IMG/VR virus record: IMGVR_UViG_3300045988_022519
Span: 1-57,776 of that record
Origin: a virus
Reading direction: 5' to 3' (one strand)
Length of the DNA stretch: 57,776 nt
The notes beneath the pieces are model-generated. The model did no database searches. It was given only the letters and a program-made list of their open reading frames with translations, and had not been told where the DNA came from. The position numbers and the translations under genes are program-made. Below are positions 1 through 57,776 of the stretch, piece after piece. How positions within the stretch are numbered: position 1 is the stretch's first letter; each line of letters opens with the position of its first letter.

Positions 1-99
1 AAATATAACTGCCGAACAAATAACATAATAAATATATGCGGTTTCCATGATTTATCCTTTCTATTCATTATGTTCAATGTTTTGATCGCGAAAAAAAAT
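1..99. repeat. Terminal direct repeat, left copy (identical to 57678-57776)
   Basis: First 99 nt (aaatataactgccgaac...gatcgcgaaaaaaaat) recur exactly as the last 99 nt; fits a circular contig overlap or short terminal redundancy. Confidence 0.95.
64..91 (-). promoter_or_regulatory. Conserved 28-nt promoter-like motif (duplicate of 57741-57768 created by the terminal overlap)
   Basis: Minus strand reads TCGCGATCAAAACATTGAACATAATGAA; matches consensus TCGCGAT-AAAA-CAT-N-GC-N-TATAATGAAA. Confidence 0.6.
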
Positions 100-18811: not shown

Positions 18812-19188
18812 GATTCAACCACCACCTTCCATGCTCTTTCCGCTATTTTATCAAATATAGGACGAATAGCGGGATTAATATAATCTCGTCCTTGTACATA
18901 ACCGCCGGTTCCGGTTCCGTGACCATATTGAATGATCACGGCAATCGGAACACCCTCATTAATGTTTGAATTTGTCCAAACAATCTCAGTCTGGGATTTA
19001 CCTTTATGAATTTCATAATCCCAAGAGGCAGCGGTTTTACCAGAATCTGAGGGAGTAGCCGCAGCAAGCACATTCACACCTTGTCGTCCCAGATCATCCA
19101 AGACATTCAAATATGGCTGACTCTTCATGCGGTTCAAAAAGCGTTCAAGCTTATTAAAGTTACCACTTATTTGAAAATCTACTCCCAT
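18808..19188 (-). CDS. Conserved virion-module protein (126 aa), HK97 gp10-like?
   Basis: LAAATPSDSGKTAASWDYEI...IIQYGHGTGTGGYVQGRDYINPA pattern; 4-nt overlap with the TMP start. Confidence 0.35.
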   Translation of the reverse strand: MGVDFQISGNFNKLERFLNRMKSQPYLNVLDDLGRQGVNVLAAATPSDSGKTAASWDYEIHKGKSQTEIVWTNSNINEGVPIAVIIQYGHGTGTGGYVQGRDYINPAIRPIFDKIAERAWKVVVES

Positions 19189-19198
19189 TTTGACCCTT

Positions 19199-20257
19199 TC
19201 AGATCTTCGTCAGATAACGAGTTGATCCATCGGCCGTTCCTACTGCGATGTAACGAAGTGCACCACTGTATGCGGTGTAACGACCCCAAAGATATCCGTC
19301 ATGGATCTCGCTCCAACCGTCGAGAATCACAGTCTGACCAGCGCGATAGGTAGCAACGACAGTGGATGCCAGCGACTGGGCAGAACGAACATTCAAAGCC
19401 TCAACTGCAACACGATAGGTTCCAGCGCTCACAGTATTGGCAACAGACGGAACGGATCCAATTGAAAGATAGGTCTGAGAACCATCAGCCGTTCCGAGAG
19501 CGATGTAGCGAGTCGCACCGCTGTATGCGGTGTAACGACCCCACTTATATCCATCGGCAACAGTCATCCAGCCATCGAGATTGACAATCTGATTACGGGT
19601 ATAGGTTGCAACAACAGACGCCGAAGTCGATGCACCAGAACGAACGTGGAGCTGATCAACGACGACAGTATAAGAACCAGCATTAATGGAACCGGTCTGA
19701 GAAGCAGTTGGAGTAGTTGCAGGCTTGACAGGAGTTGGAGCAGGCTTGGAGCCAGTCATTGAATCATAGTATGCCTGAGCCTTCGCCATATAGGCATCGC
19801 GCTGATTTCCAGCAATGGATGCCGGGCAGGCGGTGGAAGAGAAGTGACTATGCGGGAAGACATTGACGCCCCACTGCGGTCGACCGAGCTTATAATACTT
19901 GCAGAGGGCAGCGACGAGGTGTGCACCATTGTCCAAAGTCGCCTCGGAAATATGCCAGGGGGAAGTGGAATCGTCAGCATGTTCGATACCGATGGACTCA
20001 ACATTTGCATTCCAATTTCCGGCATGCCAGGCGGTATCCTTATCCCACACAAGCTGACCAATGGTTCCATTAGCTTCAACCTGATAATGGGCGGAAGCTT
20101 CACGAGTCTGCCAAACATTGTAGCAGCCTTCAGTGGTCAGATTACCGCCATTGTGATGAACAACAATATAACGAATTGGATTTCCGGAACGTCCCGGAGT
20201 GAAATGAGTATTGATAATCTTGACTTTATCAGCGTCAAGAGTTTCCCAAGACTTCAT
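19199..20257 (-). CDS. Endolysin: N-acetylmuramoyl-L-alanine amidase (Amidase_2/PGRP) plus two SH3b-like repeats
   Basis: N-terminal IRYIVVHHNGG...AHYQV...WHAGN...IGIEH. Two C-terminal repeats GxYxVxVxxLxVRSxxSxxxxVVATYxxxQxVxLDGWxxxxDGYxWGRYTAYSGAxRYIAxGTADGS. Confidence 0.9.
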   Translation of the reverse strand: MKSWETLDADKVKIINTHFTPGRSGNPIRYIVVHHNGGNLTTEGCYNVWQTREASAHYQVEANGTIGQLVWDKDTAWHAGNWNANVESIGIEHADDSTSPWHISEATLDNGAHLVAALCKYYKLGRPQWGVNVFPHSHFSSTACPASIAGNQRDAYMAKAQAYYDSMTGSKPAPTPVKPATTPTASQTGSINAGSYTVVVDQLHVRSGASTSASVVATYTRNQIVNLDGWMTVADGYKWGRYTAYSGATRYIALGTADGSQTYLSIGSVPSVANTVSAGTYRVAVEALNVRSAQSLASTVVATYRAGQTVILDGWSEIHDGYLWGRYTAYSGALRYIAVGTADGSTRYLTKI

Positions 20258-20259
20258 GA

Positions 20260-20802
20260 TTAACCTTTCGATTTATTTTGAGCTCTTCGTTGCTCATTCA
20301 ATCTTCGATTCTGAGCATAAATTTCAGAATTTGACATCTTTCTAGGAGGAGAGTTTTTGACAGAACAGAACTCTATAAGTTTAAGCAAACGATTAAGATG
20401 CCAATGTTCACAAGGCTCAAATGGAATATGATTTACAATCATCCAGTAATAAATATCTTCAGAAGTAATTACCGAACGATGATTGCTGACTTTCATATTA
20501 TAGATTCGAGCCGCTGATTGTGTACTATTCATCCACTCGAATATCTGAGTGGCATATTGTGAATATACCAGTTGTTTTAGGTTCTCGTCGATATGCTCCA
20601 AACACATGCAATCAAAATAGTCGATTAACTCTTCTTCTGTTTTTTCAGGCGTATCGACGAGAAACGGTTTTTCCCATTTTGACTCCCATTTTGAAATTGA
20701 GAGCAAGGAATGCTCGAATCGAAGATGCATTGGTGGACAGTGAATTCCGTTATCGGTTACATCATTCCAATAATCCATTTCTGGAACATCGATTTCAAGC
20801 AT
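20260..20802 (-). CDS. Putative tail assembly chaperone (Gp15-like), 180 aa
   Basis: Lies directly after the major tail gene; ISKWESKWEKPFL...HWHLNRLLKLIE...SNSEIYAQNRRLNEQRRA resembles Gram-positive phage chaperone-position proteins. Confidence 0.4.
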   Translation of the reverse strand: MLEIDVPEMDYWNDVTDNGIHCPPMHLRFEHSLLSISKWESKWEKPFLVDTPEKTEEELIDYFDCMCLEHIDENLKQLVYSQYATQIFEWMNSTQSAARIYNMKVSNHRSVITSEDIYYWMIVNHIPFEPCEHWHLNRLLKLIEFCSVKNSPPRKMSNSEIYAQNRRLNEQRRAQNKSKG

Positions 20803-20814
20803 TAAAGATCCTTA

Positions 20815-21534
20815 TCAATGAGATTCATTATTCAATTTGGTTTCCGGAAGAGTAGTCGCATCCTTGAACAGAGCATATACATCACCAGGAAGCGGAAGCT
20901 TCGGATCCTTAGTTGCACTGCCATAAAGCATGGTTTCAAGAGACTTCAGCACAGTCTTCCCCGCTTCATCGAGCTTCGTCGTATCAATTGTGATTGTCGA
21001 CACTGGTCGAAGATCATCATTAGTAATGGAAACCGGAACAGTCGAGATCTCCCAAGACATACTCATCGCATCCGGAGAATCATTAGTAGTGGTGTAGCTA
21101 CGCTCGGACGGAGCAGCAGTCGCACCATAGATCAGATGCAGCTTGTAACCATCATCGGATTCGGTAGCAGTATCATTGCCGACATTGGTAACATAGGACA
21201 GACCGAAACCTCGACGCTTCTGCTGACCAAAGTTCACACCCTTGGCCGGAGAAACGGATCCATCACAAACACTGAATTCATCTGGATAAGTGTATGCCTC
21301 GATCGTACCGCCAAAGGTCTCAGCGGAACGCAGTGTAGCGTACTTAATGTTATCGGCATAAATATCATTGGCTTCTGCACCAGACGGAGACTCGGTGACA
21401 GTGGTAAGACCATTCCAGGCCACACCGACACCGTAATCACCAGTCTCAGTCATTGGATACAATACGCCCTTGGAAACACCGTTCTCAAAATAACGAGAAC
21501 CAGGAGCATCCCAAACAATCTGCTTGCCAGCCAT
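20815..21534 (-). CDS. Major tail (tube) protein
   Basis: MAGKQIVWDAPGSRYFENGVSKGVLYP...IKYATLRSAETFGGTIEAYTYPDEF resembles phi13/TP901-type major tail proteins. ATG 21534 has AAGGAG 7 nt upstream; the ORF track starts at TTG 21540. Confidence 0.7.
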   Translation of the reverse strand: MAGKQIVWDAPGSRYFENGVSKGVLYPMTETGDYGVGVAWNGLTTVTESPSGAEANDIYADNIKYATLRSAETFGGTIEAYTYPDEFSVCDGSVSPAKGVNFGQQKRRGFGLSYVTNVGNDTATESDDGYKLHLIYGATAAPSERSYTTTNDSPDAMSMSWEISTVPVSITNDDLRPVSTITIDTTKLDEAGKTVLKSLETMLYGSATKDPKLPLPGDVYALFKDATTLPETKLNNESH

Positions 21535-31404: not shown

Positions 31405-31950
31405 CTAAATGTTACTAGAAGGAGTTGGACCTGATTGATTCTGATAATGTGATCCAAGATTGGCGGAACCATATACGCGAGCCACTGCTCCGGTTAGTTC
31501 GAAGAAACACAATTGACCAATTCTCATTCCCGGGAATATGCGAATCGGGTGGTTGTTCTCGTTCTTTATCTCAAGGGTAATATCTCCTGAGAAACCAGGA
31601 TCAATAAATCCAGCAGTGATATGAGTCGCCAAACCGATTCGACCCATCGAAGATTTGCCTTCGTATCGAGCCGCTAGATCGGATGGAATATTAACGGATT
31701 CATTTGTTGAACCTAGAATAAATTCCCCTGGCTCAAGAGCATAACCTTCATCTGGAATGATGAACTTAAAATATTCCAGATCCCTAAGTGACTTATCAGA
31801 AGCGTTAATCTCGCCACTTCCGATATAACGAATGATAGACTTAGAAAGAGTCACATCATAACTACATGGTTGAAGATTATTCGGATCATAAGGAGAGATA
31901 AGTTCATGATGAATGGCTAGATCATCAATGGAAACATCATTCAGAATCAT
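31405..31950 (-). CDS. dcd: dCTP deaminase (dUTPase superfamily)
   Basis: MILNDVSIDDL...LQPCSYDVTLS...GEFILGSTNESVNIPSDLAARYEGKSSMGRIGLATHITAGFIDPGFSGDITLEIKN...IFPGMRIGQLCFFEL. Start set at the internal ATG 31950. Confidence 0.85.
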   Translation of the reverse strand: MILNDVSIDDLAIHHELISPYDPNNLQPCSYDVTLSKSIIRYIGSGEINASDKSLRDLEYFKFIIPDEGYALEPGEFILGSTNESVNIPSDLAARYEGKSSMGRIGLATHITAGFIDPGFSGDITLEIKNENNHPIRIFPGMRIGQLCFFELTGAVARVYGSANLGSHYQNQSGPTPSSNI

Positions 31951-32299
31951 ACTCGGCACTACTTTCAATTGTCTGATTCGTCGCAGCACCAGAATATGTC
32001 TTAAAAGCTTCAATTGCTGCATTGGCGATTCGTGTGTATTCGCCAGAATCCTGTACGGCATTGGTCTTAGCTTCGATCATTTTGGTTTCACACCGAATCT
32101 TGGCCTGCTCAAGCTGTTCGCGTGTAGAAGCAAGTTTCAGAAAATGTGTAAGGACCTGTGATGAGGCTGTTCCCTCTCGAATCTGTTTCTCAACTAGATC
32201 AATTGTCATGTTGATCAACTGATTCTCACGTCCGGCAACTGTTTTAGCCGGAGGTTCTCTTAGGGATAAAGGTTCGTTCGACTTTGCTCGTCGAGCCAT
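31937..32299 (-). CDS. Possible terminase small subunit (120 aa)
   Basis: First gene after the structured leader; basic N-terminus then helical REGTASSQVLTHFLKLASTREQLEQAKI. Assigned mainly by position. Confidence 0.35.
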   Translation of the reverse strand: MARRAKSNEPLSLREPPAKTVAGRENQLINMTIDLVEKQIREGTASSQVLTHFLKLASTREQLEQAKIRCETKMIEAKTNAVQDSGEYTRIANAAIEAFKTYSGAATNQTIESSAEYDSE

Positions 32300-32346
32300 A
32301 CCAAATCATCTCCAGTTCTCAATTGCTTTGTAATAGTTCAAATAAG

Positions 32347-32477
32347 ATTCGGACTACTAAACAAGGGTATGGATGCTTTTATGCTATGATTGAAAGGAGT
32401 TTCCACCGGTTTTTAAGCCGTCATGACGTGGAATTTTGTTTATCAAAGCATCCACACCCCTGCTTAGTAGCCCGAAT
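32347..32477 (-). promoter_or_regulatory. Large RNA hairpin (33-bp stem, 65-nt structured loop) in the leader of the late/packaging operon
   Basis: Arm 32347-32379 is complementary to 32445-32477. The 4 non-Watson-Crick positions are all G-U on the minus-strand transcript but A-C on the plus strand. Confidence 0.6.
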
Positions 32478-32548
32478 CACACCCAAGAAGAAAACGACTT
32501 TCCAGAAAAATCACCCGCGGAGAATTTTCGAAGGGAGCGGCGATGCAG

Positions 32549-32582
32549 GAGGGGGTGCGATTTTGGATGAGCCCACCCCCTC
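32549..32582. other. GC-rich 9-bp hairpin in a GC-rich island (candidate cos/pac-region element or plus-sense terminator)
   Basis: gagggggtg (32549-32557) / caccccctc (32574-32582); a T-run follows only on the plus strand. Confidence 0.3.
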
Positions 32583-32611
32583 TTTTAATCATTTTATATT
32601 CAGAAACATAA

Positions 32612-32911: not shown

Positions 32912-35704
32912 TTAGTCTTTGTCATCAGAAGTTCCAGCCTTCTTAGGTTCAAGGTTCCTATAGAGAGTGGATGTAGAGATGCCAAGACGCTCTGCTACCT
33001 GTGATTGTGTATAGCCACGTTTGAGTAAGGTTTCAGCCATGCTAAGCATAGATGCTGACATACCAGTCTCAGTATGTGGCATAGCCAATTGCTTCAACTT
33101 GTCAGGATCTGAGTTAGCCAGTATTCTGCTAAGTGTATTAGCGCTGACTGCATGATTCTGTATGGCTTCCCATTCCTTATCAGTGATGTCAATCTGTTGC
33201 TTTTTGGCACCGGTTCTCTGACGGGCCTCTGTAAGACACTGTCCTTTAAGACGTTTCTTATCAGAGTTATCATATTCTGGATGCTCATCCAACTTGATTT
33301 TATATAGTTGGTTTGCAACAAACTGGGCTCGGCGTTCCAAAGGAGAGTTCTTTTCTGCAATGTTAAGTTTAGCATTGAGAGATTGAACTTCAGTCGCATA
33401 CTTCTGCTTGGCTGCTGGATCATACTTGAAAGAACCGGCAGACAGATATGATTTGCGGGTTTGATTTGCCAGGGCCTTCATTTTATTAGCATAGTCTGCA
33501 TAAATATTTTCCATCTGGGTACCAGTTGAAAGAGAATATGCATCCTTTGCATAAGCCATCTTAGTGGTCTTTGTAAGATAAGGAATCGTCTTTTCGGAAA
33601 TGATGTTCCCTTCTTTGTCATACTTTTTCTTCACATAAGAACGATTTGTATTCTTATAGCGAAGTTCACCAGTATTTGGATCGATGGGACCACCTTCAGA
33701 AGCTTTCCAAAGACGACGTTCGGGAACATCGATCTCAGACTTAGCTCTAGAAATAAGAGTCGAAGCACCACCTGGTTTTCCACCACCAGGTTTGGGCTGA
33801 TACTTTGCCTTAAGAGCATCAATTCCATTATCGATTTCAGACTGACGCCAATTAAGCTTATGCTTCTCGGCATCAATAACCACCATCGAATGACGAACTG
33901 CCCTTTCGATCTCAGACCATTCCGCACCTTTAAGGGTCATGTCTGTAATAAGGTTTGAGACCTTACCCATCTCAGTTCCCTTTTGCTTTTTGGTCATTAC
34001 TTTCATGCCTTCATAGGCAGGATATGCCTCTTTAGGATCAAAGTTTTTAAGACCAGCAAGCGGAGCTCGAGTCTTAATCTCATGTCTTGGGTTCGGAATA
34101 ACCAAAACATTATCACCATCGAAATCTGCACCAGAAAGAATTTCAGCAACATGCGAATTAATACCTACTGCATCACTTGGATGAGTTCCCATAACTCGCT
34201 TTGCTTCTGCATTTTTGTTGTTGACTTTCAATTCTGGAATTTCGAATTTACCTCCATGTGGGAAACGAATAAGAACTACATCTTCACCATCACGAAGATG
34301 AGGGGCGTAGATCTCATTGTCCTTCAAAGAGGTGATCGGTAAAATAACTTTAGTCGCCTGACGTGGCATAGCTGCTGCCTTTAGATCTACAGCCGCTGTG
34401 TCGCATTCATCTGCAAACTCTTTAAGCATCTTGGCTTTTACAATCGGATTTGTCAGACTCATAATATCATCATACTGACTCTTACGAACCTGGTAATCAA
34501 TATCCAATTGTTTCTTGGCAAGACTCTTGTCCTGTTTTGAAAGCATCTGAGATGGAAGCACAGACTTCCATTCCGACCAAACACCTTCTCCATTGACAAG
34601 ATTTATAGCGGACTGCTTCTGGTTTCCGTCCTTATCGATATAATGATAGTTCTTGAAGGTTGCACCGAATGGAATATCCCAATCGATATCACCTTGGCTA
34701 CCATCAGGATTCTTGACTTTCTTCAAAGGCTTCAAAACATCATCAATTTCATTTGTCTTTCCTGTTTTAGGATCGACTCGATGCTTGTTCGTGTTGAATA
34801 TGATGTCAACGCCTTTAGGGAAGTCCTTTTCTTGACCGTAGACAGCCATACCTTTCAAATATGACTTATCTCCAACATTAATTCGGACCTGTGCGTATAG
34901 CATATTTCCCATACGAAGATCAGCAGCCGAAGGACGAATCTCCATAACGCCATCTTTTTCGATTCCGCCTTCTTCATTGTAACGAATTTTCACTCGTTTA
35001 GGATCGACGGAAATCGGCCTTTGAAATTTCGAACCTTGTCCCTCAGGATGTTTTTCATCAAGAGGATTTGCGATTGATTTAAATAAGGATGGATTATCCC
35101 AAATATCCTTCACAGTCGTTCCTGGAGCCAATAGAACCTTAATATCAGTGGTATTATCTGGTCCACTCGCTCCAAGTTGCTTAACATAAAGATGACCAAC
35201 ATGATAACCTTCATTTTTAAGCATCTCAGCTGCTACTTTTAGCTTATCGGCTGAACTATTCAAATATAGCTCAGTCGACTTGCCAATATCGACACATCCT
35301 TTTTCACCAATGGTATCTTTGAGATTTGTGGCGATTGTCTGAGCGACGTCAGTGCGAACTTTCAAAGAAGGATCCAGCCAATTACGAACCGTGGATTCAT
35401 TGGTATTCATTCGCTGAGCGATGGCCACATTAGAATATCCCTTTTTCTTCAGGCGGTATGCCATTGAAATATTCGCTTGACGTTCCTCTGCGAGCGCAAT
35501 GGACTTTTGGGCCCTGTATTGGGTTGTAGTCATTCCGAGAGCTCGTGCAATTTCAGTCTGTGTAAGACCTTTACTCGCAAGTTCTCGAGAACGACCTAAA
35601 AATCCAGGCTCATGCTGATATGGATCTTCACCAGATCCCCATTTGTATCGACCGGAACGACGTTTGACACCTTCGTGCATCAAATATGATTCTTCAAGCA
35701 TCAT
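32912..35704 (-). CDS. Putative single-chain two-barrel (YonO / RdRP-like) RNA polymerase with N- and C-terminal HTH modules
   Basis: beta-like barrel segment YLKGMAVYGQEKDFPKGVDIIFNTN (34784-34849). beta-prime-like catalytic segment DVVLIRFPHGG...ILSGADFDGDNVLVIPNP (DFDGD at 34112-34126). HTH-like LTQTEIARALGMTTTQYR, YSNVAIAQRMNTNESTVRNW, YTQSQVAERLGISTSTLYRNL. Confidence 0.6.
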   Translation of the reverse strand: MMLEESYLMHEGVKRRSGRYKWGSGEDPYQHEPGFLGRSRELASKGLTQTEIARALGMTTTQYRAQKSIALAEERQANISMAYRLKKKGYSNVAIAQRMNTNESTVRNWLDPSLKVRTDVAQTIATNLKDTIGEKGCVDIGKSTELYLNSSADKLKVAAEMLKNEGYHVGHLYVKQLGASGPDNTTDIKVLLAPGTTVKDIWDNPSLFKSIANPLDEKHPEGQGSKFQRPISVDPKRVKIRYNEEGGIEKDGVMEIRPSAADLRMGNMLYAQVRINVGDKSYLKGMAVYGQEKDFPKGVDIIFNTNKHRVDPKTGKTNEIDDVLKPLKKVKNPDGSQGDIDWDIPFGATFKNYHYIDKDGNQKQSAINLVNGEGVWSEWKSVLPSQMLSKQDKSLAKKQLDIDYQVRKSQYDDIMSLTNPIVKAKMLKEFADECDTAAVDLKAAAMPRQATKVILPITSLKDNEIYAPHLRDGEDVVLIRFPHGGKFEIPELKVNNKNAEAKRVMGTHPSDAVGINSHVAEILSGADFDGDNVLVIPNPRHEIKTRAPLAGLKNFDPKEAYPAYEGMKVMTKKQKGTEMGKVSNLITDMTLKGAEWSEIERAVRHSMVVIDAEKHKLNWRQSEIDNGIDALKAKYQPKPGGGKPGGASTLISRAKSEIDVPERRLWKASEGGPIDPNTGELRYKNTNRSYVKKKYDKEGNIISEKTIPYLTKTTKMAYAKDAYSLSTGTQMENIYADYANKMKALANQTRKSYLSAGSFKYDPAAKQKYATEVQSLNAKLNIAEKNSPLERRAQFVANQLYKIKLDEHPEYDNSDKKRLKGQCLTEARQRTGAKKQQIDITDKEWEAIQNHAVSANTLSRILANSDPDKLKQLAMPHTETGMSASMLSMAETLLKRGYTQSQVAERLGISTSTLYRNLEPKKAGTSDDKD

Positions 35705-37725: not shown

Positions 37726-37744
37726 TGTTGTTCCTTTCAGAAAA

Positions 37745-37867
37745 TTTTTACTTCATACATTATAGCATTTTATACTGGTTTCTTATTTATGTGTATTTTT
37801 TCTTATATTATTATTATTTTATTCTATTCTATTCTAATAGTAAAAGCTATAATGTATGAAGTAAAAA
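37745..37867. repeat. Perfect 22-bp inverted repeat around a 79-nt AT-rich spacer
   Basis: tttttacttcatacattatagc (37745-37766) / gctataatgtatgaagtaaaaa (37846-37867). Spacer contains (attct)x3; each arm carries GCTATAATG reading outward. Confidence 0.9.
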
Positions 37868-37868
37868 G

Positions 37869-37983
37869 AAACCATCCTCGAAAAATAAGCCCAAAAGTCC
37901 CAAAAACGTTGGAATTTCAACGTTTTCAGCACTTTTGAGACCCATAAACCATCCTCGAAAAATAGACCCAAAAGTCCAAAAAA
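37869..37983. repeat. Two 38-nt direct repeats, 77-nt period (iteron-like)
   Basis: aaaccatcctcgaaaaataagcccaaaagtcccaaaaa (37869-37906) vs aaaccatcctcgaaaaatagacccaaaagtccaaaaaa (37946-37983). Confidence 0.85.
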
Positions 37984-37990
37984 TCAAAGT

Positions 37991-38090
37991 TGTGCACAGA
38001 TGAGCATTTTTCGAATACCCCCTAACTTGATGAAAAATTCGGATTTTTTCATCAATTTTTCGAGGTTCGAAAAATGCTCATCTGTGCACA
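37991..38090. repeat. Perfect 25-bp inverted repeat with a nested 11-bp inverted repeat
   Basis: tgtgcacagatgagcatttttcgaa (37991-38015) / ttcgaaaaatgctcatctgtgcaca (38066-38090); inner ttgatgaaaaa/tttttcatcaa (38027-38055). Confidence 0.9.
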
Positions 38091-38109
38091 CCCATTTTTC
38101 AAGGCCCTT

Positions 38110-38131
38110 CATTTGTGCACATGCACAAATG
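38110..38131. repeat. 10-bp-arm palindrome containing TGTGCACA
   Basis: catttgtgca-ca-tgcacaaatg; third TGTGCACA octamer within 140 nt. Confidence 0.8.
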
Positions 38132-38143
38132 AAATCGACCAAA

Positions 38144-43035: not shown

Positions 43036-44145
43036 TCAGTTAACACCATTGAATAGTCTTTCCATTGTCTTGTTTGATTCCGGATTCGGTGAAATATAAG
43101 GTTCATCTGAAACAAACCATCCATAGTCACCTCGTTCATTGATCGCTCCAATTGCATCATCGGCAAGTTTTTCGTAATATGACATGTCGATTTCATTATT
43201 GAGATTACGATCACGGACTATTGATGCTTCTTTCCACCGATAGCCTTTTGCTCCAGTGGCACTTGAATATCCTCCTTTGCCATCGCTTCTGACAAGTTCT
43301 CCACCGCCGAAACCACTTTTGACTGGAATGAATGCACCAACTTTTCCAACGAATGAGTAATTATGCTCATCTGCTGGTAGATCTTCATTGAAGTCGAGAT
43401 ATAGTGATGTCTGTACACTTTTAGTCTCCGATAGATCCGATAGGCTGATTGGCTCACCTGAAAATAAGGTCTTGAATACATATGGAACCTGAAACTGCAA
43501 CCCTGTAGCGGTCCATTCACCAGCGTGTTCACCCCATGCGGAATGAGCAATATACGTGGACTTATTGACAATGCAAAGCTTGTCATAAGTTGCCTCGTGT
43601 TCGAATGTGTATCCATACTTATGTCCAAAATCAGTCACCCAGTTGATAATATAATCATCAGCATCTGCGATCTTGATCGAATCAGTTTTGATGTGGACTA
43701 CGGTATAACCCATCTCCTGGACTTTATGCTTCAGCGTGATCATAAATAATGCACCACGCTTGGCAACTTTATTGTCCTTGTTTCGATCTCCAGGACCAGC
43801 TGCGACATCGTTGAACCTTGTCGGAAAATGCGCCGAAGTCAGACCATAAACAGAATTGATCGGAATCTTCAATGCTGTTGACAGGATCTTCTGGTTCTCA
43901 CGAAGCTCGGCATCTGTGAATTTGTTGTCCAGAAGCTTTTCCGCGGTTGCGAAATCTCCATGTTTGATTGCGATACGCGTATCCAGAATATCCTTGTATC
44001 GTTTTGTATATGGTCCGAACATGTTCATAGCAATGATCGAATGCGGATGCATCGAAGCAATATCCAGCAATGCGACATTACCGAACATGCCACCTAGCAT
44101 TGGTTTGTCAGTCATGATTTCTGTAATACTCCTCCGAAAGTTCAT
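43036..44145 (-). CDS. Family B DNA polymerase, C-terminal (palm/thumb) half
   Basis: Motif A LLDIASMHPHSII (about 44040-44075), motif B KIPINSVYGL (about 43841-43870), motif C HIKTDSI (about 43669-43697). Alternative start ATG 44115 (MTDKPMLGG...) is coupled to the stop of the preceding small ORF. Confidence 0.85.
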   Translation of the reverse strand: MNFRRSITEIMTDKPMLGGMFGNVALLDIASMHPHSIIAMNMFGPYTKRYKDILDTRIAIKHGDFATAEKLLDNKFTDAELRENQKILSTALKIPINSVYGLTSAHFPTRFNDVAAGPGDRNKDNKVAKRGALFMITLKHKVQEMGYTVVHIKTDSIKIADADDYIINWVTDFGHKYGYTFEHEATYDKLCIVNKSTYIAHSAWGEHAGEWTATGLQFQVPYVFKTLFSGEPISLSDLSETKSVQTSLYLDFNEDLPADEHNYSFVGKVGAFIPVKSGFGGGELVRSDGKGGYSSATGAKGYRWKEASIVRDRNLNNEIDMSYYEKLADDAIGAINERGDYGWFVSDEPYISPNPESNKTMERLFNGVN

Positions 44146-44281
44146 CGAGTGATTTGGCTAATGAGGGCCAATTCCTTCTGACCCTGTCTTTCATATTACG
44201 ATGATATTCAGGACACCTGCCTTCAACAGACCATGCCAAAATAACATCGACAACTGATCGATTTAAAGCCTTGTTACTCAT
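44108..44281 (-). CDS. Small ORF (57 aa) inside the polymerase split
   Basis: [34 protein letters not shown]...; TAATG coupling upstream and ATGACTGA coupling downstream. Confidence 0.4.
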   Translation of the reverse strand: MSNKALNRSVVDVILAWSVEGRCPEYHRNMKDRVRRNWPSLAKSLDELSEEYYRNHD

Positions 44282-44382
44282 TATTCATCTCCGAAAAATA
44301 GAGCAATGGCGAGAAATATCACGATAATAGCAATACCGATCAATGTCTCGCCACTGAAGTTTTCAAATATCTCTTCAATCAT
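44281..44382 (-). CDS. Small membrane ORF (33 aa) inside the polymerase split
   Basis: [33 protein letters not shown]; ATGA overlap with the thyA stop. Confidence 0.4.
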
Positions 44383-45272
44383 ACAGCCACAGGAGCCTTG
44401 ATTGCGGGATGACACTTGTAGTTTTCCAGATGGAAGTCTTCAAGCTTGTAGCTGAAAATATCCTTGGCTTTATCGATCTTCATCTTCGGGAAAGGATATG
44501 GAGTTCGATGAAGCTCTGTTTCAACCTGATCGAGATGATTCAGATAAATATGGCAATCGCCACCAGTCCAGATCAAACGTCCAGGTTCAAGACCAGTCTG
44601 TTGGGCCATCATCATAGTCAACAGAGAATATGATGCGATGTTAAACGGAACTCCGAGGAACATGTCTGCAGACCTCTGATAGATCTGACAATCAAGACGT
44701 TCGGATTCCGTAACATAGAACTGGAAGAACGTATGACATGGAGGAAGAGCCATATCAGGAATCTTGGACGGATTCCAGGCACTCACAATGATCCTGCGAG
44801 AATATGGATCGTTCTTGATAAGATCGATGGCATTCTGTATCTGATCAATATGATCGCCATTCCAGTCACGCCATTGCTTACCATAGATCGGTCCGAGATC
44901 TCCATTCTCGTCTGCCCATTCATCCCAAATATGAACACCATTGTCATTCAGGTATTTGATGTTGGTATCACCATTGAGGAACCACAGAAGTTCGGCAATT
45001 ACACCTTTCAAATATACCTTCTTGGTGGTAACCAGTGGGAAATATAGCGACAGATAGAATTCCATCTGGAGACCAAATGTCGACAGAGTACCAACTCCTG
45101 TTCGATCCTTACGAATGGTTCCGAGATCGACTACCTTTTTCAATGTCTGTTCATAAATATCGTTACAGAATGTTGTGGAATCACGAAGATGCGCGACTCT
45201 GACAAAATCATTGTCCATATATTTCAGAACATTCTTATACATGTCTGGAAGGGTTTCTTGAATATCAGTCAT
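44379..45272 (-). CDS. thyA: Thymidylate synthase (ThyA family)
   Basis: [24 protein letters not shown] (catalytic Cys), [27 protein letters not shown]. Confidence 0.95.
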
Positions 45273-45291
45273 GATTAACTCCTTTTATCTA

Positions 45292-45537
45292 TTAGATGAA
45301 AAATAGTGCTTTATCGTCTTGAAGATAACTGCTAACCGCAGTGGTATTCGATTTTGACAGATACGTTACTTCGTAAATACGATCATCGCTTGGTTCATCT
45401 GTTACGACAAACGCATAGTAATTCCCACAAATATATCCACTCGATTTGATAGACAGATTGTAATCTCTTTTCTGTTTTAAATATCCCTTCTTATCGATAT
45501 AGCGACGAACCGCATATTCGATTAACTGATAATTCAT
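45292..45537 (-). CDS. Hypothetical protein (81 aa) inside the polymerase split
   Basis: ATG 45537 with GGGAGGAAC RBS and ATGA overlap with the stop of the 953-aa gene. Confidence 0.5.
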   Translation of the reverse strand: MNYQLIEYAVRRYIDKKGYLKQKRDYNLSIKSSGYICGNYYAFVVTDEPSDDRIYEVTYLSKSNTTAVSSYLQDDKALFFI

Positions 45538-48395
45538 TGTTCCTCCCATGGATGTTTAATATTCATATAATCCTGATCGACATCGCCATTCTCCATGCCA
45601 TACACAAATACGTAACCGCCTTCCGACGGATACTCGCCCATATACTTGGACTTTTGATCCTTTGGTGCATACGGATCAAATGTATAGCCAGGAAATAGTT
45701 CAGCAAGATCCGGATAATTAAATTTGCTTTGTGGATTACGCTCGTCACCGAATATGATCTTGGCTGTATGCGTATTGTTGGTATCGTTTACTGTAAGACC
45801 TGAAAGCTGAGCCAGAATTTTACGAGCTTCGAAATCACCACTTAGATGATTGAAGACTGCCTTTGTGGCTCGAACATCGTCCTTACAATATGATTCCACC
45901 AATGGCCATTGCTCTTTTGGAATATCAGAATCCCAATCCATGCCAAGCTCATGATGATCGATTCCCAATTCGATCTCCCATTTCTTAAGAGATTGCTTCT
46001 TTGATGAGAAATCGTAGATATCCGCATATGAGATGTTGTATGCTTGACCGAATAATGCATCTTTTTGACCAGATACAATACGTTTCGACAGATCATACAA
46101 TTGGGCATTACTATAATTAAGAAATCCCCAAGCATAGAGAATATGATTGTCATACTTACGGTTATTGAATCCGACCAGATTCTGTTCCATAAGCGTGATA
46201 ACGGATTCCCTAGGTGGATTGATCCATGATCTGACAATATCGGAATCACTATCCATAAAGCAGATCATAAAGAGATTCGGAAACACCTCGACATCGTAAA
46301 ATATGATTTTATCCGTGTTTGACGGATTTAATCCCTCTGGCATTTTTTCAGATTGGAATTTCATATTCGTCACCACAGTCAGGCAATAATCTGCCCAATG
46401 TGTTGATCCCATGGCGAAGTGCATGACCTTTTGTTGGAGATCTCTGACATCATAAACCAAGCCTTGCTCATATGCCTCATCCAGTACCTTTGCGATGAAA
46501 TCGATACTTGGTTTGGTTCCAGGTTGGTACTTTTTGAGAAGAGCATTCTTTATGATGTTCCTCAGATGCCTTTCATCCTGAATCTCCTGTTGATTGATCA
46601 AGGTCTTTTCTCCTTTCAACGGAAGTCCTGAGGAAATATGGGCCACTTCGAGATCATTACATCTGGATAACTGTCGTCTTAAAGACGATTTGCCTTTGTA
46701 AACTTTGATCTCAATATGAGTACTGTAAAGATTCTTCAATCTCGATACATCACCATCATAAATATAATGGAGATGCAGACCGTTTCCGGACTTTGACACT
46801 TCAGTATATGTAGGAGGAAACTCAGAAGCTGCTTTGATATTTGCTTCCAGATTCTTCTCTCCATCCTCACCTCGTACATCAAAGTCGAGAACAATATGAT
46901 TCTCGGGTACTCTGACCCAATGAAGTTTCTTGGTATCAATATCTTTCAATGTGGTTTTTACATTGTCCCATGCCTCCTTTGGAGCTCCGGATTCATCGTT
47001 TCTGGCATATTGAGCTTGATAATCTGCAGCAAGTTTATCGAACTCAGAAATATCAGTATCCAAACGGATCCAGCTAGTCGGTGTTTCGGTCTTTGTCTTT
47101 TTCGATGTGAACTTGTCATATTTGAATCCCTGGAATGTGACATTACTTCCATGTCGTTCCATTGTATCAAAATATGTCTGAAGTTCATACATGAAGTCGG
47201 AACGTTTAAGCATTACATTGACTTTGAAGTCATCCGCCCATGCTTTATACGTTCTCCACAACATTGCGAGACTCAGTGGATCATCGGTATCGAATATCTC
47301 GAATTCATCCTGAATGAAATTATACACATCATTCGTTCGAGCAATCATATCAGTTGGAATATATCCATCATAATATGATCGACCGAGATTCCGATAAATC
47401 TTCAGACAATGATCGGCAATCGCCCCGAGCTCGAATTTGATTCCGTCAAGATCTTTGAAATACTCATCCGGCTTTATTTTCTTACCAGTCGGATGAATAT
47501 CAATCAATCTTCGAATCAAACCAGATTTCGAGTCAGTTACTTTTACCGGATGATTCGTAGCCATGAATAACATGGTGCGAAGTTCGATCGGATACTGTTT
47601 GACACCTTTCTCATTCACCTGTATAGTTTCGTGAGATACTATCTGGTTGAGAATCGTGTTATTCCATAGACGTGACAAATCACCATCATGTTGAATCGCC
47701 ACCAATGGAGCATTTCGGAATGCAGCAGTTGCAAACTGATATCCTTTACCGAGATCTTCAGCTGAGAAATATGCGATGTATCCAGGAAATAGTTCTTCAA
47801 TGATGTTCAAAATCGTCGATTTACCAGTTCCAGGATCACCATAGATCACGAACATCTTTTGGATCTTCTGAATATCATGACCATCAATCATGGCTCCGAT
47901 ACCCCACTCTAGTTTTTGTCTCTCAGCTGGAGCATAGAGTGTCGACATAAGTTCCTCATAGCAAGGACACTTACCCGGTTTGATTGAATAATCAAGTTTC
48001 AGTGTCGCATAATCTTCACGCTCTGGAACCTGATCAGAAAATATCATCTTCTGATTCAGGGTTCCAGGACTATTATCAAGGTTTCTTAGGAAACCCAAAT
48101 ATCGATTCCAACACCCATTGCTTCCATCATTCATGAACATTGGTGCGACAACAGCACCATCTTTAGATTCATAGGAATCATAGAAGTTTTGAATATCATT
48201 GTCGATCAGTTTACTGAGTGTTTCACGTTTCTGAGACCACAGATGAGTTGAAGGATCATAGACAGCGTAGAACTCGCCTCCTTTTACCAACAAATCATGA
48301 AACCCTCGGACCTTCGGATCTGCATAGATTTGTTCATGGCCTTTGGTCGTAGGCTTCACACGAATCTTTACCTGATCCAAGGTTACTCCTTTCAC
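45534..48395 (-). CDS. Fusion protein: SF3 (D5/P4-type) helicase, AEP primase-polymerase, PolB 3'-5' exonuclease domain
   Basis: Walker A VIYGDPGTGKST. AEP motifs VLDFDV and SKSGNGLHLHY. ExoI FYDVEVF (about 46287-46298), ExoII NNRKYDNH (about 46140-46172), ExoIII YCKDDV (about 45862-45895). Ends PSEGGYVF... just before where PolB motif A is expected. Confidence 0.8.
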   Translation of the reverse strand: MKGVTLDQVKIRVKPTTKGHEQIYADPKVRGFHDLLVKGGEFYAVYDPSTHLWSQKRETLSKLIDNDIQNFYDSYESKDGAVVAPMFMNDGSNGCWNRYLGFLRNLDNSPGTLNQKMIFSDQVPEREDYATLKLDYSIKPGKCPCYEELMSTLYAPAERQKLEWGIGAMIDGHDIQKIQKMFVIYGDPGTGKSTILNIIEELFPGYIAYFSAEDLGKGYQFATAAFRNAPLVAIQHDGDLSRLWNNTILNQIVSHETIQVNEKGVKQYPIELRTMLFMATNHPVKVTDSKSGLIRRLIDIHPTGKKIKPDEYFKDLDGIKFELGAIADHCLKIYRNLGRSYYDGYIPTDMIARTNDVYNFIQDEFEIFDTDDPLSLAMLWRTYKAWADDFKVNVMLKRSDFMYELQTYFDTMERHGSNVTFQGFKYDKFTSKKTKTETPTSWIRLDTDISEFDKLAADYQAQYARNDESGAPKEAWDNVKTTLKDIDTKKLHWVRVPENHIVLDFDVRGEDGEKNLEANIKAASEFPPTYTEVSKSGNGLHLHYIYDGDVSRLKNLYSTHIEIKVYKGKSSLRRQLSRCNDLEVAHISSGLPLKGEKTLINQQEIQDERHLRNIIKNALLKKYQPGTKPSIDFIAKVLDEAYEQGLVYDVRDLQQKVMHFAMGSTHWADYCLTVVTNMKFQSEKMPEGLNPSNTDKIIFYDVEVFPNLFMICFMDSDSDIVRSWINPPRESVITLMEQNLVGFNNRKYDNHILYAWGFLNYSNAQLYDLSKRIVSGQKDALFGQAYNISYADIYDFSSKKQSLKKWEIELGIDHHELGMDWDSDIPKEQWPLVESYCKDDVRATKAVFNHLSGDFEARKILAQLSGLTVNDTNNTHTAKIIFGDERNPQSKFNYPDLAELFPGYTFDPYAPKDQKSKYMGEYPSEGGYVFVYGMENGDVDQDYMNIKHPWEEQ

Positions 48396-57509: not shown

Positions 57510-57725
57510 TTATAGAAGTGAGTAACCTACGTAATAACCCCACAAGATCAATGCTATCATTCCAACAGCCATAAACATTCGGATGATTTTGGCTCCGATT
57601 GTGATACGATACTTCAAAGCTACGAATGTATCTTTGATGAAAATATACACAGCTGGGATAAAGATCGTTCCGAGTGTAAATATAACTGCCGAACAAATAA
57701 CATAATAAATATATGCGGTTTCCAT
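57510..57725 (-). CDS. Two-TM small membrane protein (71 aa)
   Basis: METAYIYYVICSAVIFTLGTIFIPAVYIFI...IRMFMAVGMIALILWGYYVGY; its 5' end is duplicated at nt 1-48 by the terminal overlap. Confidence 0.6.
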   Translation of the reverse strand: METAYIYYVICSAVIFTLGTIFIPAVYIFIKDTFVALKYRITIGAKIIRMFMAVGMIALILWGYYVGYSLL

Positions 57726-57776
57726 GATTTATCCTTTCTATTCATTATGTTCAATGTTTTGATCGCGAAAAAAAAT
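57678..57776. repeat. Terminal direct repeat, right copy (identical to 1-99)
   Basis: Exact 99-nt identity with the window start. Confidence 0.95.
57741..57768 (-). promoter_or_regulatory. Conserved 28-nt promoter-like motif
   Basis: Minus strand TCGCGATCAAAACATTGAACATAATGAA, upstream of 57510-57725. Confidence 0.6.

Follow-up and report, generated by a model that had tools for sequence, protein, structure and literature searches.

The long hairpin that stands before the first late gene of the window (the whole 57,776-nt stretch of viral DNA analysed here) is, on the evidence of sequence comparison, a putative structured RNA that is widely conserved and previously uncatalogued. Covariation, folding and strand asymmetry in related phages make it very probable that the element is structured on the sense strand and functional, and it probably acts as RNA rather than as single-stranded DNA. 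Taken as a whole, a leader RNA that is processed by RNase III and acts on the processing and translation of the late genes is a plausible account of its role, which we put forward tentatively.

The stem of the hairpin, P1, is formed by two segments that contain the arms recognised in the initial annotation:

32442-32486, minus strand: 5' strand of P1, containing the earlier arm 2 (32445-32477)
32338-32382, minus strand: 3' strand of P1, containing the earlier arm 1 (32347-32379)

These arms pair over 33 positions at the coordinates originally given. A direct reading of the letters bears out that all four non-Watson-Crick positions are A in arm 1 and C in arm 2 on the plus strand, which become U-G on the minus, coding strand, and the 33 contiguous pairs comprise 29 Watson-Crick and 4 G-U pairs. 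A repeat search returned a 37-nt inverted repeat (32346-32382 / 32442-32478) that is 86% complementary as DNA; with G-U allowed, P1 (32338-32382 with 32442-32486) grows to 43 pairs, interrupted by 2 mismatches, and scores higher than any other stem of the whole 57.7-kb genome. Folding of the region, which the initial annotation had proposed as a check, gave a stable minus-strand hairpin of -66.7 kcal/mol (z = -9.9; 0 of 200 shuffles as stable), and the plus-strand fold, with four interior mismatches, reached -56.4 kcal/mol. From the uniform minus-strand orientation of the genes alone we infer that both arms are on one transcript. With 33 and up to 43 pairs, P1 supplies the near-continuous double-stranded RNA helix of at least ~20 bp that is expected of an RNase III substrate, and we consider it quite possible, if somewhat short of probable, that it is one. 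The length of P1 in relatives is 23-45 pairs; in the L005 group it has bulges, and a perfect duplex is therefore not required.

P1 encloses an inner domain whose sequence, unlike that of P1, is conserved:

32383-32441, minus strand: inner domain, 59 nt, enclosed by P1
32434-32441, minus strand: single-stranded junction AAACAAAA between P1 and P2, kept in the window, the L005 group and BitterVaud1
32428-32433, minus strand: 5' strand of P2a, UUCCAC, pairing with 32401-32406, with compensatory changes in relatives
32407-32420, minus strand: P2b, in the MFE fold CGG (32418-32420) with CCG (32407-32409) and loop CUUAAAAA
32401-32406, minus strand: 3' strand of P2a, GUGGAA, directly 5' of the motif
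32390-32400, minus strand: invariant single-stranded motif ACUCCUUUCAA, directly 3' of P2

This domain shows zero changes among four full haplotypes of the lineage and is the conserved block of an alignment (A2) of three lineages with polymerases that are 53-60% identical. Two pairings had been proposed for the loop. The helix UUCCAC/GUGGAA covaries, reading UUCCUC/GAGGAA and UUGCCC/GGGCAA in relatives, whereas the palindrome CGUCAUGACG is not a kept helix there; the consensus fold pairs CGG with CCG instead (P2b, helix 3 of A2, 3 pairs changed on both sides). The initial annotation was right about the hairpin pairing but missed the invariant inner domain and the anti-Shine-Dalgarno-like motif within it. 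The hexamer TAGCAT is present in the loop of the window only and is not conserved in relatives.

Eight bases of the motif, CUCCUUUC, reproduce exactly the anti-Shine-Dalgarno region at the 3' tail of 16S rRNA, and the motif is identical to the tail of the Bifidobacterium host type (...CACCUCCUUUCUA). The sense strand of the genome holds a single copy of CTCCTTTCA, namely the motif itself, and the five plus-strand copies are complements of ribosome-binding sites. The phage's own ribosome-binding sites read UGAAAGGAG and are complementary to CUCCUUUC, and the best predicted duplexes of the motif genome-wide include several ribosome-binding-site-like sequences of this type. CTCCTT occurs in 10 of 16 loops and its complement in none of the 16; in the L025 lineage a purine-rich GGGAGGUGA replaces the motif. 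Two further readings of the motif were tried and set aside. As an antisense small ORF, the plus strand of the motif would read as a ribosome-binding site, but most lineages have no start codon at a workable distance, the only case being annotated gene 2 of Mudcat; short ORFs called across the hairpin, this one included, are probably spurious. Mimicry of a tRNA or anticodon loop (CUC-CUUUCAA-GAG) was rejected because no tRNA is predicted and the window lineage lacks the 3-bp stem.

How far is the pairing maintained in other phages? Within this lineage, the four haplotypes leave the 5' strand of P1 unchanged except in the outer extension and carry C/U polymorphisms in the 3' strand opposite G, which toggle between G-C and G-U; of 9 variable P1 pairs, 8 are preserved via C-G, U-G or U-A. 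A 98%-identical group displays the series from GC through GU to AU. Hairpins are found in many lineages with the same YonO-like polymerase, comprising gut Bifidobacterium-type phages, five Arthrobacter phages, Lactococcus phage P162 and uncultured groups, and their position is kept in divergent phages whose polymerases are 45-60% identical. The arms are unalignable between lineages, yet the pairing is preserved. In the Bifidobacterium-phage set, 98.8% of cells are paired, compared with 85% in shuffles and 41-57% in slid controls, and none of 500 shuffles reaches the observed values. The arms there are compensatory at 25 of 38 pairs, which have changed on both sides, so that the covariation for which the initial annotation had suggested searching is present, and an independent Arthrobacter-phage set is compensatory at 25 of 42 pairs. 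A covariance model (R1) scores 149.6 bits on the sense and 32.8 bits on the antisense strand, with one copy in the genome; it reaches the L049 group at E = 0.005 and found only its seeds and that group, and no wider family. Remote lineages are linked through position, architecture and motif only, and their hairpins may be homologous or, by convergence, analogous. Several phages that bear the polymerase have no element or a degenerate one (Streptomyces phages RosaAsantewaa and Rima, Curtobacterium phage Yotsuba, Gordonia phages Petito and Duffington).

These comparative data already contradict a reading in which the hairpin has no function and is a chance or selfish inverted repeat, such as a miniature transposon, with G-U pairs that result from C-to-T bias on the non-template strand. 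For the window alone, four wobbles out of four have a chance of about 1 in 16 under a transition-only model, and a C-to-U change relative to a 99%-identical relative accounts for three of them, which share one arm, as such a bias might leave them. However, the element is single-copy per genome and syntenic across the divergent polymerase carriers described above, its arms have diverged fully and still pair around an invariant inner domain, the asymmetry survives a control for base composition, and the flanks of P1 have no target-site duplication. We give lack of function next to no credence.

The initial annotation took the strand asymmetry of the wobble pairs as a sign of selection at the RNA level, and this argument holds in part. 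Across 20 non-redundant hairpins, G-T exceeds A-C by 59 to 17 on the sense strand (p = 1.4e-6, or 4e-5 when tested against the compositional expectation of 0.54). In 15 of 17 lineages the sense fold is the more stable one, by a mean of 8.7 kcal/mol (Wilcoxon p = 7.6e-5), and in the L005 group the hairpin exists on the sense strand only (z = -2.9, versus -0.25 for the antisense strand). Together with the covariation, these observations strongly support selection on a single-stranded fold of the sense strand, but G-U pairs by themselves do not separate RNA from single-stranded DNA of that same strand. G-T is the least destabilising mismatch in DNA, and the asymmetry is therefore also compatible with a hairpin of single-stranded DNA.

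Such a coding-strand DNA hairpin might serve the YonO-like polymerase as an N4-like promoter or provide a priming signal of the ssoA/G4 type, with the loop motif being recognised. It would be equally expected to fold strand-specifically with G-T rather than A-C, its variable stems and short invariant loop motif would resemble plasmid single-strand origins, and minimal two-barrel polymerases work without a melting factor while this enzyme has sigma region 4-like helix-turn-helix domains. The combination of a strand-specific hairpin with a conserved loop motif that marks single-strand origins and hairpin promoters is indeed present, and RNA elements share it, so that it does not discriminate. 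Several points argue against a role as DNA. YonO is processive on double-stranded templates and strictly DNA-dependent, a cruciform would involve both strands, which predicts no asymmetry, and resection in the 5'-to-3' direction from the left end would lay bare the template strand, opposite to the one that folds. The phage has its own replication genes (primase-polymerase, helicase, annealing protein, exonuclease); no rolling-circle Rep that would indicate a single-stranded DNA stage was found among the proteins scanned, which did not comprise every ORF, and the conserved CS-6 motif TAGCGT is absent, the TAGCAT of the window loop being unmatched in relatives. In addition, P2 covaries although it lies upstream of the motif, which is unexpected if transcription began at the motif, and the fixed place of the hairpin just before the first late gene, at any distance from cos, points to gene expression. 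We therefore regard a single-stranded DNA hairpin as very unlikely and favour an RNA.

The surroundings of the hairpin are as follows:

31937-32299, minus strand: first late gene, 120 aa, PHROG 4259, homologues of which follow the hairpin in most lineages
32506-32528, no strand assigned: conserved palindromic box AAAATTCTCCGCGGGTGATTTTT beside the genome end, which opens the genomes of all isolates examined
32534-32542, minus strand: putative cohesive-end overhang CGCCGCTCC, from contig ends of diverse relatives and isolate ends
32549-32582, no strand assigned: conserved G-rich stem-loop (GAGGGGGTG...CACCCCCTC), directly before the right genome end
32912-35704, minus strand: YonO/RdRP-like single-chain RNA polymerase, 930 aa (PHROG 4291, E = 0)

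The non-coding gap of 312 nt (32300-32611) and the minus-strand orientation of the genes were described correctly, as was the placement of the hairpin directly upstream of the first late gene: P1 finishes 38 nt before it, and the spacing is 24-85 nt in relatives. The designation as a late-operon leader is right about this position but overlooked the cohesive end of the genome within this gap. Similarly, the gene region upstream is that of the polymerase, as had been stated, but a 92-aa gene intervenes between the polymerase and the gap. By its position, the first late gene is a candidate for the small terminase subunit; searches of Pfam, NCBIfam and PDB sequences with its product gave no match. 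The polymerase belongs to the YonO/RdRP-like family (10.1101/842583), and carries helix-turn-helix (sigma region 4-like) domains at both ends. In isolates it is encoded by the last gene but one at the right end, and this gene is the signature of element-bearing phages.

Isolate genomes and the contigs of diverse relatives terminate at ...GCAT/CGCC, a junction that maps to ~32543 of the window. On the right, the genome finishes with ...CCUGCAT (T at 32543); on the left, it begins at ~32533, so that P1 starts ~47 nt in from the left cohesive end of the packaged DNA. Right ends of isolates read ...CTGCAT/CGCCGGCCT (Mudcat) and ...CTGCAT/CGCCCCAGTC (P162), and the motif lies ~120-135 nt from the start of metagenome contigs. 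That assemblies of these phages break here is explained by the element together with the cos site. The palindromic box is probably a site for terminase or another DNA-binding protein, and the G-rich stem-loop is found just ahead of the genome end in nearly all relatives. A plus-strand small RNA ending at this stem-loop and a T run was considered and rejected, as the T run is unconserved and the stem-loop abuts the genome end.

The proximity of the cohesive end raises the question of whether the inverted repeat acts as double-stranded DNA, as a cosB-like site for the small terminase or another dimeric protein. Its neighbours are putative packaging genes and, at a distance of 47 nt, the inferred genome end, and inverted half-sites may co-evolve with the protein that binds them. 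The distance from genome end to hairpin, however, is 31 nt in P162, 47 nt in the window and ~180-540 nt in the Arthrobacter phages, which departs from the fixed close spacing of cosB, and in the latter phages the hairpin is still just before the first long gene, so that the element is not tied to cos. No second copy of the cos-proximal palindrome was found beside the distant hairpins of Mudcat and CapnMurica. Moreover, sequence is conserved between lineages in the separate palindromic box at the end but not in the arms, and G-T/A-C asymmetry, sense-only folding and covarying internal helices would be unexpected for recognition of duplex DNA. A packaging signal is highly improbable in our view.

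Where would a transcript containing the RNA begin? In several lineages only ~35 nt separate the genome end from the hairpin, and a transcript with both arms would have to start at or across the joined cos site. A promoter scan of the gap upstream returned nothing convincing. Both points weigh against the leader reading. A sigma-70 promoter in or just after the hairpin was rejected: TA-rich hexamers follow P1 in many lineages, with no consistent -35/-10 pair.

In the mechanism that we propose, the element would be a conserved structured RNA encoded in cis, within the 5' untranslated leader that precedes the packaging, structural and lysis genes of the long late operon. Transcripts entering the operon would fold P1, and host RNase III would cut this two-to-four-turn duplex. 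Cleavage would set the 5' end of the late mRNA, sever read-through RNA that arrives across the joined cos site, and liberate the inner domain or leave it accessible. At that stage the CU-rich motif could pair with Shine-Dalgarno sequences. Its nearest target would be the first late gene's ribosome-binding site, for which folding of this phage also predicts sequestration by a CU-rich 5' flank, in a helix termed P0. The element would thereby adjust RNA processing and stability as well as translation for the packaging genes. The P0 segments are:

32490-32500, minus strand: tentative 5' strand of P0, AAGUCGUUUUC, pairing, in an extended fold prediction, with the first late gene's ribosome-binding site
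32300-32313, minus strand: Shine-Dalgarno GGAG and spacer of the first late gene, of which 32303-32313 is the tentative 3' strand of P0

That the motif acts through pairing with Shine-Dalgarno sequences is conceivable, and we hold it with some doubt. CUCCUUUC is the kind of pyrimidine-rich segment complementary to ribosome-binding sites that characterises a cis-acting anti-Shine-Dalgarno repressor; with the first late gene's own GGAG the motif pairs over 4-5 bp only. The extended fold of the window pairs the 5' flank with the ribosome-binding site over 11 bp, and a pairing of this type is predicted in only ~6 of 13 lineages, which keeps P0 tentative; it could be due to chance beside the C-rich cos-proximal sequence.

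A leader of this kind could alternatively act on the polymerase. In processive antitermination, nascent P2 and the motif, held by P1, might bind the transcribing enzyme and render it terminator-resistant along the ~30-kb late operon; this might be the host enzyme with Nus factors, by analogy to boxA-boxB of rrn and nut, or the phage YonO-like enzyme, by analogy to HK022 put. The element stands at the very start of a long single-strand operon, its hairpin is followed by a conserved U/C-rich single-stranded box in the order of boxB-boxA, and phages that infect different host phyla and share one conserved polymerase keep the motif invariant. The L038 variant CCCUCUUUCAUAA looks boxA-like, and the Arthrobacter-phage motif ACUCCUUUCAAGAGCG and the actinobacterial rrn leader block GAGAACUCAAGAGCGUGU both have ACUC...AAGAGCG. 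Nonetheless, ACUCCUUUCAA fits the boxA consensus GYUCUUUAANA (PMC5725501) at 7 of 11 positions only and deviates at position 5, and identity with boxA was rejected on this consensus. The resemblance of Bifidobacterium-type phages to the Bifidobacterium rrn leader is weak, its block GUGGUGGUUUGAGAACUCAAGAGCGUGU having only AACUC..AA in common with the window. Known antitermination RNAs, furthermore, need no perfect helix of 30-45 bp, and several polymerase-bearing phages are without the element. Antitermination thus appears unlikely.

The same cleavage by RNase III might instead release a trans-acting small RNA or decoy, a stem-loop of ~80-110 nt with an exposed mimic of the 16S tail. Such an RNA could mask ribosome-binding sites of early or host mRNAs, in an early-to-late switch or host shut-off, or act as a decoy for factors or nucleases that recognise the anti-Shine-Dalgarno sequence. 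The layout is that of a miniature pre-16S rRNA, with a long processing stem around a hairpin and then CUCCUUUC, and several ribosome-binding sites in the early/replication half, along with the one of the 92-aa gene, match the complement of the motif perfectly over 9-12 nt. Exposed C-rich seeds against Shine-Dalgarno sequences are the norm in Gram-positive regulatory RNAs, which counts in favour of a role in trans. On the other hand, outside the 8-mer the element shows no significant similarity to the 16S 3' domain; a more extended mimicry of h45 and tail was rejected after local alignment to the Bifidobacterium 16S 3' end (z = 0-3). A generic Shine-Dalgarno seed also lacks target specificity, and late structural genes would be hit as well. 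We consider it distinctly unlikely that the element is a miniature pre-rRNA-like module, a stable RNA that is excised by RNase III, consists of a hairpin and a 16S anti-Shine-Dalgarno tail, and acts in trans. If it were, it would constitute a new class of viral regulatory RNA common to phages of Actinobacteria and Firmicutes with YonO-like polymerases.

If the hairpin is indeed a leader RNA, a widespread and uncatalogued structured RNA marks the entry to the late operon in a large phage supercluster, whose polymerase is carried by at least 250 sequenced isolates. The carriers also encode a little-understood polymerase, the single-chain enzyme of the YonO type. The element would offer a mutable handle on where and how late transcription starts in these phages, on the processing and balance of a 30-kb late operon from which little terminase and much capsid protein are needed, and on whether phages exploit an anti-Shine-Dalgarno mimic to manipulate translation. 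Several carriers, among them Arthrobacter and Lactococcus phages, can be cultured on non-pathogenic hosts, which makes these predictions directly testable.

How does the element relate to known systems? Rfam 15, which includes phi29 pRNA, 6S RNA, ribozymes and riboswitches, gave 0 matches in the window at gathering thresholds; sub-threshold matches in the gap are to generic long-hairpin models only (microRNA precursors, snoRNAs). Literature searches on the element, on promoters of the YonO type and on left-end structures of Arthrobacter phages returned nothing specific. The pRNA of phi29 likewise lies beside the genome end and the packaging genes and combines a long 5'/3' helix with a central domain, its structure being conserved and its stem sequence not. 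Unlike the present element, it comes from protein-primed podoviruses without cos and has its own early promoter, and as no Rfam pRNA match is found here, the likeness is a resemblance only.

A parallel in gene order is the late-operon leader of the Bacillus prophage SPbeta, which YonO transcribes; there the gene for a YonO-family polymerase is also followed by a small gene, a non-coding stretch and the late/packaging operon. A mapped YonO start in SPbeta lies upstream of an unannotated non-coding RNA (PMC5467207). A hairpin with a CU-rich loop (CAUCUCCUUUAUAUC) just upstream of yonK may be a weak parallel at the level of sequence. SPbeta differs in that its gap is 1.7 kb long, with DUF3800-VIII as the sole Rfam match, has no detectable sequence homology, and belongs to a temperate prophage with another genome layout.

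With boxA-boxB of nut and rrn, the element has in common a small hairpin adjoining a conserved U/C-rich box near the start of a long operon; it differs by its departure from the boxA consensus, by its very long enclosing helix, and in that no N-like protein was identified. The C/U-rich seeds with which Gram-positive regulatory RNAs target Shine-Dalgarno sequences, and cis-acting anti-Shine-Dalgarno leaders, such as the loops of S. aureus RNAIII and RNA thermometers, similarly expose a pyrimidine-rich sequence complementary to ribosome-binding sites, and RNase III is the usual partner of such duplexes. Here, by contrast, the identity is to 8 nt of the 16S tail and is located in an operon leader, and no specific target or covarying partner was found.

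Finally, RNase III hairpins, including the T7 R sites, the lambda N-leader and sib, early RNA of B. subtilis phage SP82 and the stems flanking 16S and 23S rRNA, share with the element a long duplex of the sense transcript in a non-coding gap between transcription units. The 23-45 bp found here equal or exceed the approximately two helical turns required by RNase III. The T7 R sites are shorter hairpins with an internal bubble and are unlike the element in this respect, whereas the pre-16S stem, like P1, surrounds a functional RNA segment rather than a simple loop. What distinguishes the present element from this group is that the domain it encloses is conserved in sequence and carries an anti-Shine-Dalgarno-like motif, and that it adjoins a cohesive end.

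The arms of the hairpin lie at 32347-32379 and 32445-32477, as the initial annotation had placed them, and direct reading agrees with it that at each of the four imperfect positions the plus strand has A against C, which becomes U-G on the minus strand, the strand that carries all long ORFs of the window. A repeat search returns an inverted repeat at 32346-32382 and 32442-32478 (37 nt, 86% complementary as DNA), and with G-U pairs allowed the closing helix, P1, comprises 43 pairs and two mismatches (32338-32382 with 32442-32486), the top-scoring stem of the whole genome when both strands are considered. The minus-strand RNA is predicted to fold at -66.7 kcal/mol (z = -9.9, matched by 0 of 200 shuffles), and the plus-strand RNA at -56.4 kcal/mol with the expected four interior mismatches. 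The reported 312-nt gap (32300-32611) is likewise present.

Long hairpins occupy the same place in most related lineages, including Arthrobacter phages Mudcat, CapnMurica, Uzumaki, Shiba and Qui, Lactococcus phage P162 and Bifidobacterium phage BitterVaud1; stems of different lineages cannot be aligned by sequence, and pairing is nonetheless kept. Covariation, which had been proposed as a check, was found: in a Bifidobacterium-type alignment of the window, its near-identical relative, the 60% group (the group of related locus L005) and BitterVaud1, pairing extends to 98.8% of cells, compared with 85% in shuffles, 25 of 38 pairs have changed on both sides, the observed values were reached by none of 500 shuffles, and sliding the partner by 1-3 columns lowers pairing to 41-57%. 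An independent alignment of the five Arthrobacter phages contains 25 compensatory pairs out of 42, and a 98%-identical gut group shows a G-C, G-U, A-U series at one position together with two double changes. Closer to the window, three of its four wobbles are G-C in a 99%-identical relative, and four full haplotypes of its lineage differ at nine P1 pairs, eight of which still pair via C-G, U-G or U-A, with zero changes in the 59-nt inner domain enclosed by P1. These data show that the element is conserved and that the conserved property is its structure; that it is a non-functional repeat is effectively excluded by the same comparison.

Which strand folds can be read from the imperfect pairs, as helices were found in a strand-neutral manner with G-T and A-C scored equally. 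On the sense strand, 20 non-redundant hairpins contain 525 Watson-Crick pairs, 59 G-T and 17 A-C (p = 1.4e-6), an asymmetry that persists against the share of 0.54 expected from base composition (p = 4e-5). Folding energies favour the sense strand in 15 of 17 lineages (mean difference 8.7 kcal/mol, p = 7.6e-5), and the bulged hairpin of the 60% group is formed by the sense strand only (z = -2.9 versus -0.25 for the antisense). The alignment also yielded a covariance model, which gives the window 149.6 bits on the sense strand versus 32.8 bits on the antisense strand. With this model the genome shows a single copy, and one remote group is recovered (E = 0.005). A duplex-DNA site or a cruciform is thereby excluded as the selected form. 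The earlier argument from strand asymmetry to selection at the RNA level thus holds for the sense-strand fold, while the asymmetry alone fits RNA and single-stranded coding-strand DNA alike, and the element may instead be a hairpin in single-stranded DNA that serves the polymerase or a primase. Elsewhere in the window, a 420-nt intergenic region (37726-38143) holds two perfect 25-bp inverted repeats (37745-37867 and 37991-38090) that lack a G-U bias, which places them at the DNA level. The region also contains GGACTTTTGGGTCTATTTTTCGAGGATGGTTT twice, as a direct repeat, and a block rich in A/T, and it resembles a replication origin or a regulatory region.

The surroundings of the hairpin are as follows.

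32912-35704, minus strand: YonO/RdRP-like RNA polymerase, 930 aa, with a helix-turn-helix at both ends, upstream of the gap
Between polymerase gene and gap: a 92-aa gene
32549-32582: conserved G-rich stem-loop, preceding ...GCAT and then the overhang CGCCGCTCC
About 32543: putative right genome end
32534-32542: putative cohesive overhang, about CGCCGCTCC
About 32533: putative left genome end
After the overhang, within the cohesive-end region 32506-32582: conserved palindromic box AAAATTCTCCGCGGGTGATTTTT
Downstream of the gap, in order: 120-aa gene (PHROG 4259), dCTP-deaminase-like gene, large terminase subunit

The first 99 nt of the window (1-99) recur at 57678-57776, which makes it a circular or circularised assembly of a 57,677-bp genome. 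Among 80 related loci collected with the polymerase as probe, many contigs (polymerase 45-99% identical) stop at a homologous spot, ...CCCTCC(C/T)GCAT, just 3' of the conserved G-rich stem-loop. Sequenced isolates carry the polymerase gene at the extreme right end, stopping about 330-470 nt before the genome end, with one small gene after it in both right ends read, those of Mudcat (...CCCCCTCTGCAT-CGCCGGCCT) and P162 (...CCTCCTCTGCAT-CGCCCCAGTC). Isolate genomes open with CC(T/C)NAAAAAT-CCCCGNGGGG-ATATTT, a box with a match in the window, and metagenome contigs of the window's lineage begin about 120-135 nt ahead of the loop motif. Many relatives' contigs and isolate genomes thus end or start exactly at 32506-32582, and the gap therefore contains a cohesive-end site (cos), with the true genome ends at about 32533/32543. 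A late-operon leader had been proposed; the first late gene does follow, in a more specific context, since the gap holds this site. Measured from the left end of the virion DNA, the hairpin starts about 47 nt in, and 38 nt separate its far side from the first late gene.

Several neighbouring genes have features of their own. The first late gene (ORF 31937-32299) overlaps the dCTP-deaminase-like ORF (31405-32061) by 125 nt (31937-32061); deaminase homology begins only at residue 31-39, so that the real start is probably further downstream. At both termini (residues about 40-115 and 885-920) the polymerase has helix-turn-helix domains resembling sigma-70 region 4; these could read a double-stranded promoter, the twofold-symmetric cos-adjacent box being a candidate. 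A separate primase-polymerase (PHROG 4210; 43036-48395) is split into ORF 45534-48395 (profile 2-949) and ORF 43036-44145 (profile 953-1296); the thymidylate synthase gene (44379-45272) and small ORF between the halves may be an insertion into this gene.

Is the hairpin part of the cohesive end? In the Arthrobacter phages 180-540 nt separate it from the end, yet it still sits just upstream of the first long gene, and no second copy of the cos-proximal palindrome accompanies these end-distant hairpins. We therefore reject a cos-tied element, and a cos-associated duplex site is effectively excluded by the comparative data. The element is absent from the polymerase-bearing Streptomyces phages RosaAsantewaa and Rima and Curtobacterium phage Yotsuba, and short and degenerate in polymerase-bearing Gordonia phages. 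Being neither universal among these phages nor cos-tied, it is an accessory element, and neither the obligatory promoter of the polymerase nor part of the packaging site. Streptomyces phage Kardashian (L246, 43-135) has a different hairpin in the same genomic place, in which anti-Shine-Dalgarno-like CCUCCUUGC pairs with Shine-Dalgarno-like GCAAGGAGG, which suggests that pairings between CU-rich and Shine-Dalgarno-like sequences are a recurrent feature of the late-operon start, also where the long element is missing. The left end of CapnMurica (L087, 1-746) comprises about 746 nt without an annotated gene, and a second hairpin there (45-143) pairs a second motif copy, CCUCUUUCAAGC, with GCUUGAAAGAG. 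In Mudcat (L083, 371-568), the conserved hairpin's loop contains the start of annotated reverse gene 2, which is probably a spurious call.

What had been described as a 65-nt loop does contain the UUCCAC/GUGGAA pairing, and is a structured domain instead of a simple loop, with these parts.

Junction: AAACAAAA
P2, the small inner hairpin: UUCCAC/GUGGAA plus CGG/CCG
Directly 3' of P2: single-stranded ACUCCUUUCAA

P2 covaries (UUCCUC/GAGGAA and UUGCCC/GGGCAA in relatives), and a small hairpin with (A/U)(C/U)CUCCUUUCAAGAG immediately after it recurs in lineages with unrelated stems, such as L019, L027, the L049 group and all five Arthrobacter phages, with variants in P162 (CCUCCUUAAG), BitterVaud1 (ACUCCUUACAAAAG) and L038 (CCCUCUUUCAUAA). 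CTCCTT is found on the sense strand of 10 of 16 loops, its complement in 0 of 16. The window has one sense-strand copy of CTCCTTTCA; five plus-strand copies are complements of coding-strand ribosome-binding-site-like sequences (UGAAAGGAG). The 8-mer CUCCUUUC is identical to the 16S rRNA 3' tail, ...GGAUCACCUCCUUUCUACGGAG (from 31 Bifidobacterium rrn loci), with no significant 16S similarity past the 8-mer. One uncultured lineage (L025, 2996-3107) is an exception: it keeps the long helix, with purine-rich GGGAGGUGA replacing the CU-rich motif in its loop. The motif weakly resembles an actinobacterial rrn leader block; boxA was rejected, as 7 of 11 consensus positions match and position 5 deviates, and so was an antisense gene, since the motif complement is not followed by a conserved start codon. 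Rfam gave no family match at gathering thresholds and generic long-hairpin models only at permissive ones, and tRNA prediction found none.

In bacteria, a helix of two to four turns that is free in sequence and strict in pairing is above all a substrate of RNase III, an enzyme present in all host groups concerned. P1, which in the joined genome has the right-arm genes on one side and the late operon on the other, would be cleaved by RNase III; cleavage would separate the late mRNA from read-through RNA, give this mRNA a defined 5' end, and free the inner domain or make it accessible. Since the invariant motif is exactly complementary to canonical ribosome-binding sites, pairing with them would be its simplest function; several ribosome-binding-site-like sequences are among the best duplexes predicted for it across the genome, and the closest ribosome-binding site belongs to the first late gene. 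An extended fold of the window adds, at the base of P1, a pairing between a CU-rich 5' flank (32490-32500) and this site (32303-32313). Because only about half of the lineages are predicted to form it, this pairing, P0, is tentative; it would mask the site, which cleavage could therefore unmask. We infer transcription, cleavage and the role of the motif, and the same structure may alternatively serve as a put- or nut-like processive antitermination RNA, or be excised as a trans-acting small RNA or decoy.

No description of the element was found in Rfam or in the literature searched. Its general kind is familiar, that of structured leaders or processing hairpins in phages, but the RNA motif itself is new and is unusual in three respects: how long its helix is, its conserved anti-Shine-Dalgarno-like inner domain and its place at the genome end of phages with a YonO-like polymerase. 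In SPbeta (L088, NC_001884), a 1.7-kb non-coding gap between yonN and yonK (19152-20834), downstream of yonO, matches the Rfam motif DUF3800-VIII (19409-19474, minus strand, 47.5 bits); immediately ahead of yonK, CAAUAAUCUCCUUCGGG/UCCGAAGGAGCUUAUUG form a hairpin whose loop is CU-rich. The SPbeta sequence offers only a weak structural parallel to the window hairpin; the YonO-transcribed late operon of SPbeta starts upstream of an unannotated non-coding RNA (PMC5467207), a useful precedent for a structured leader.
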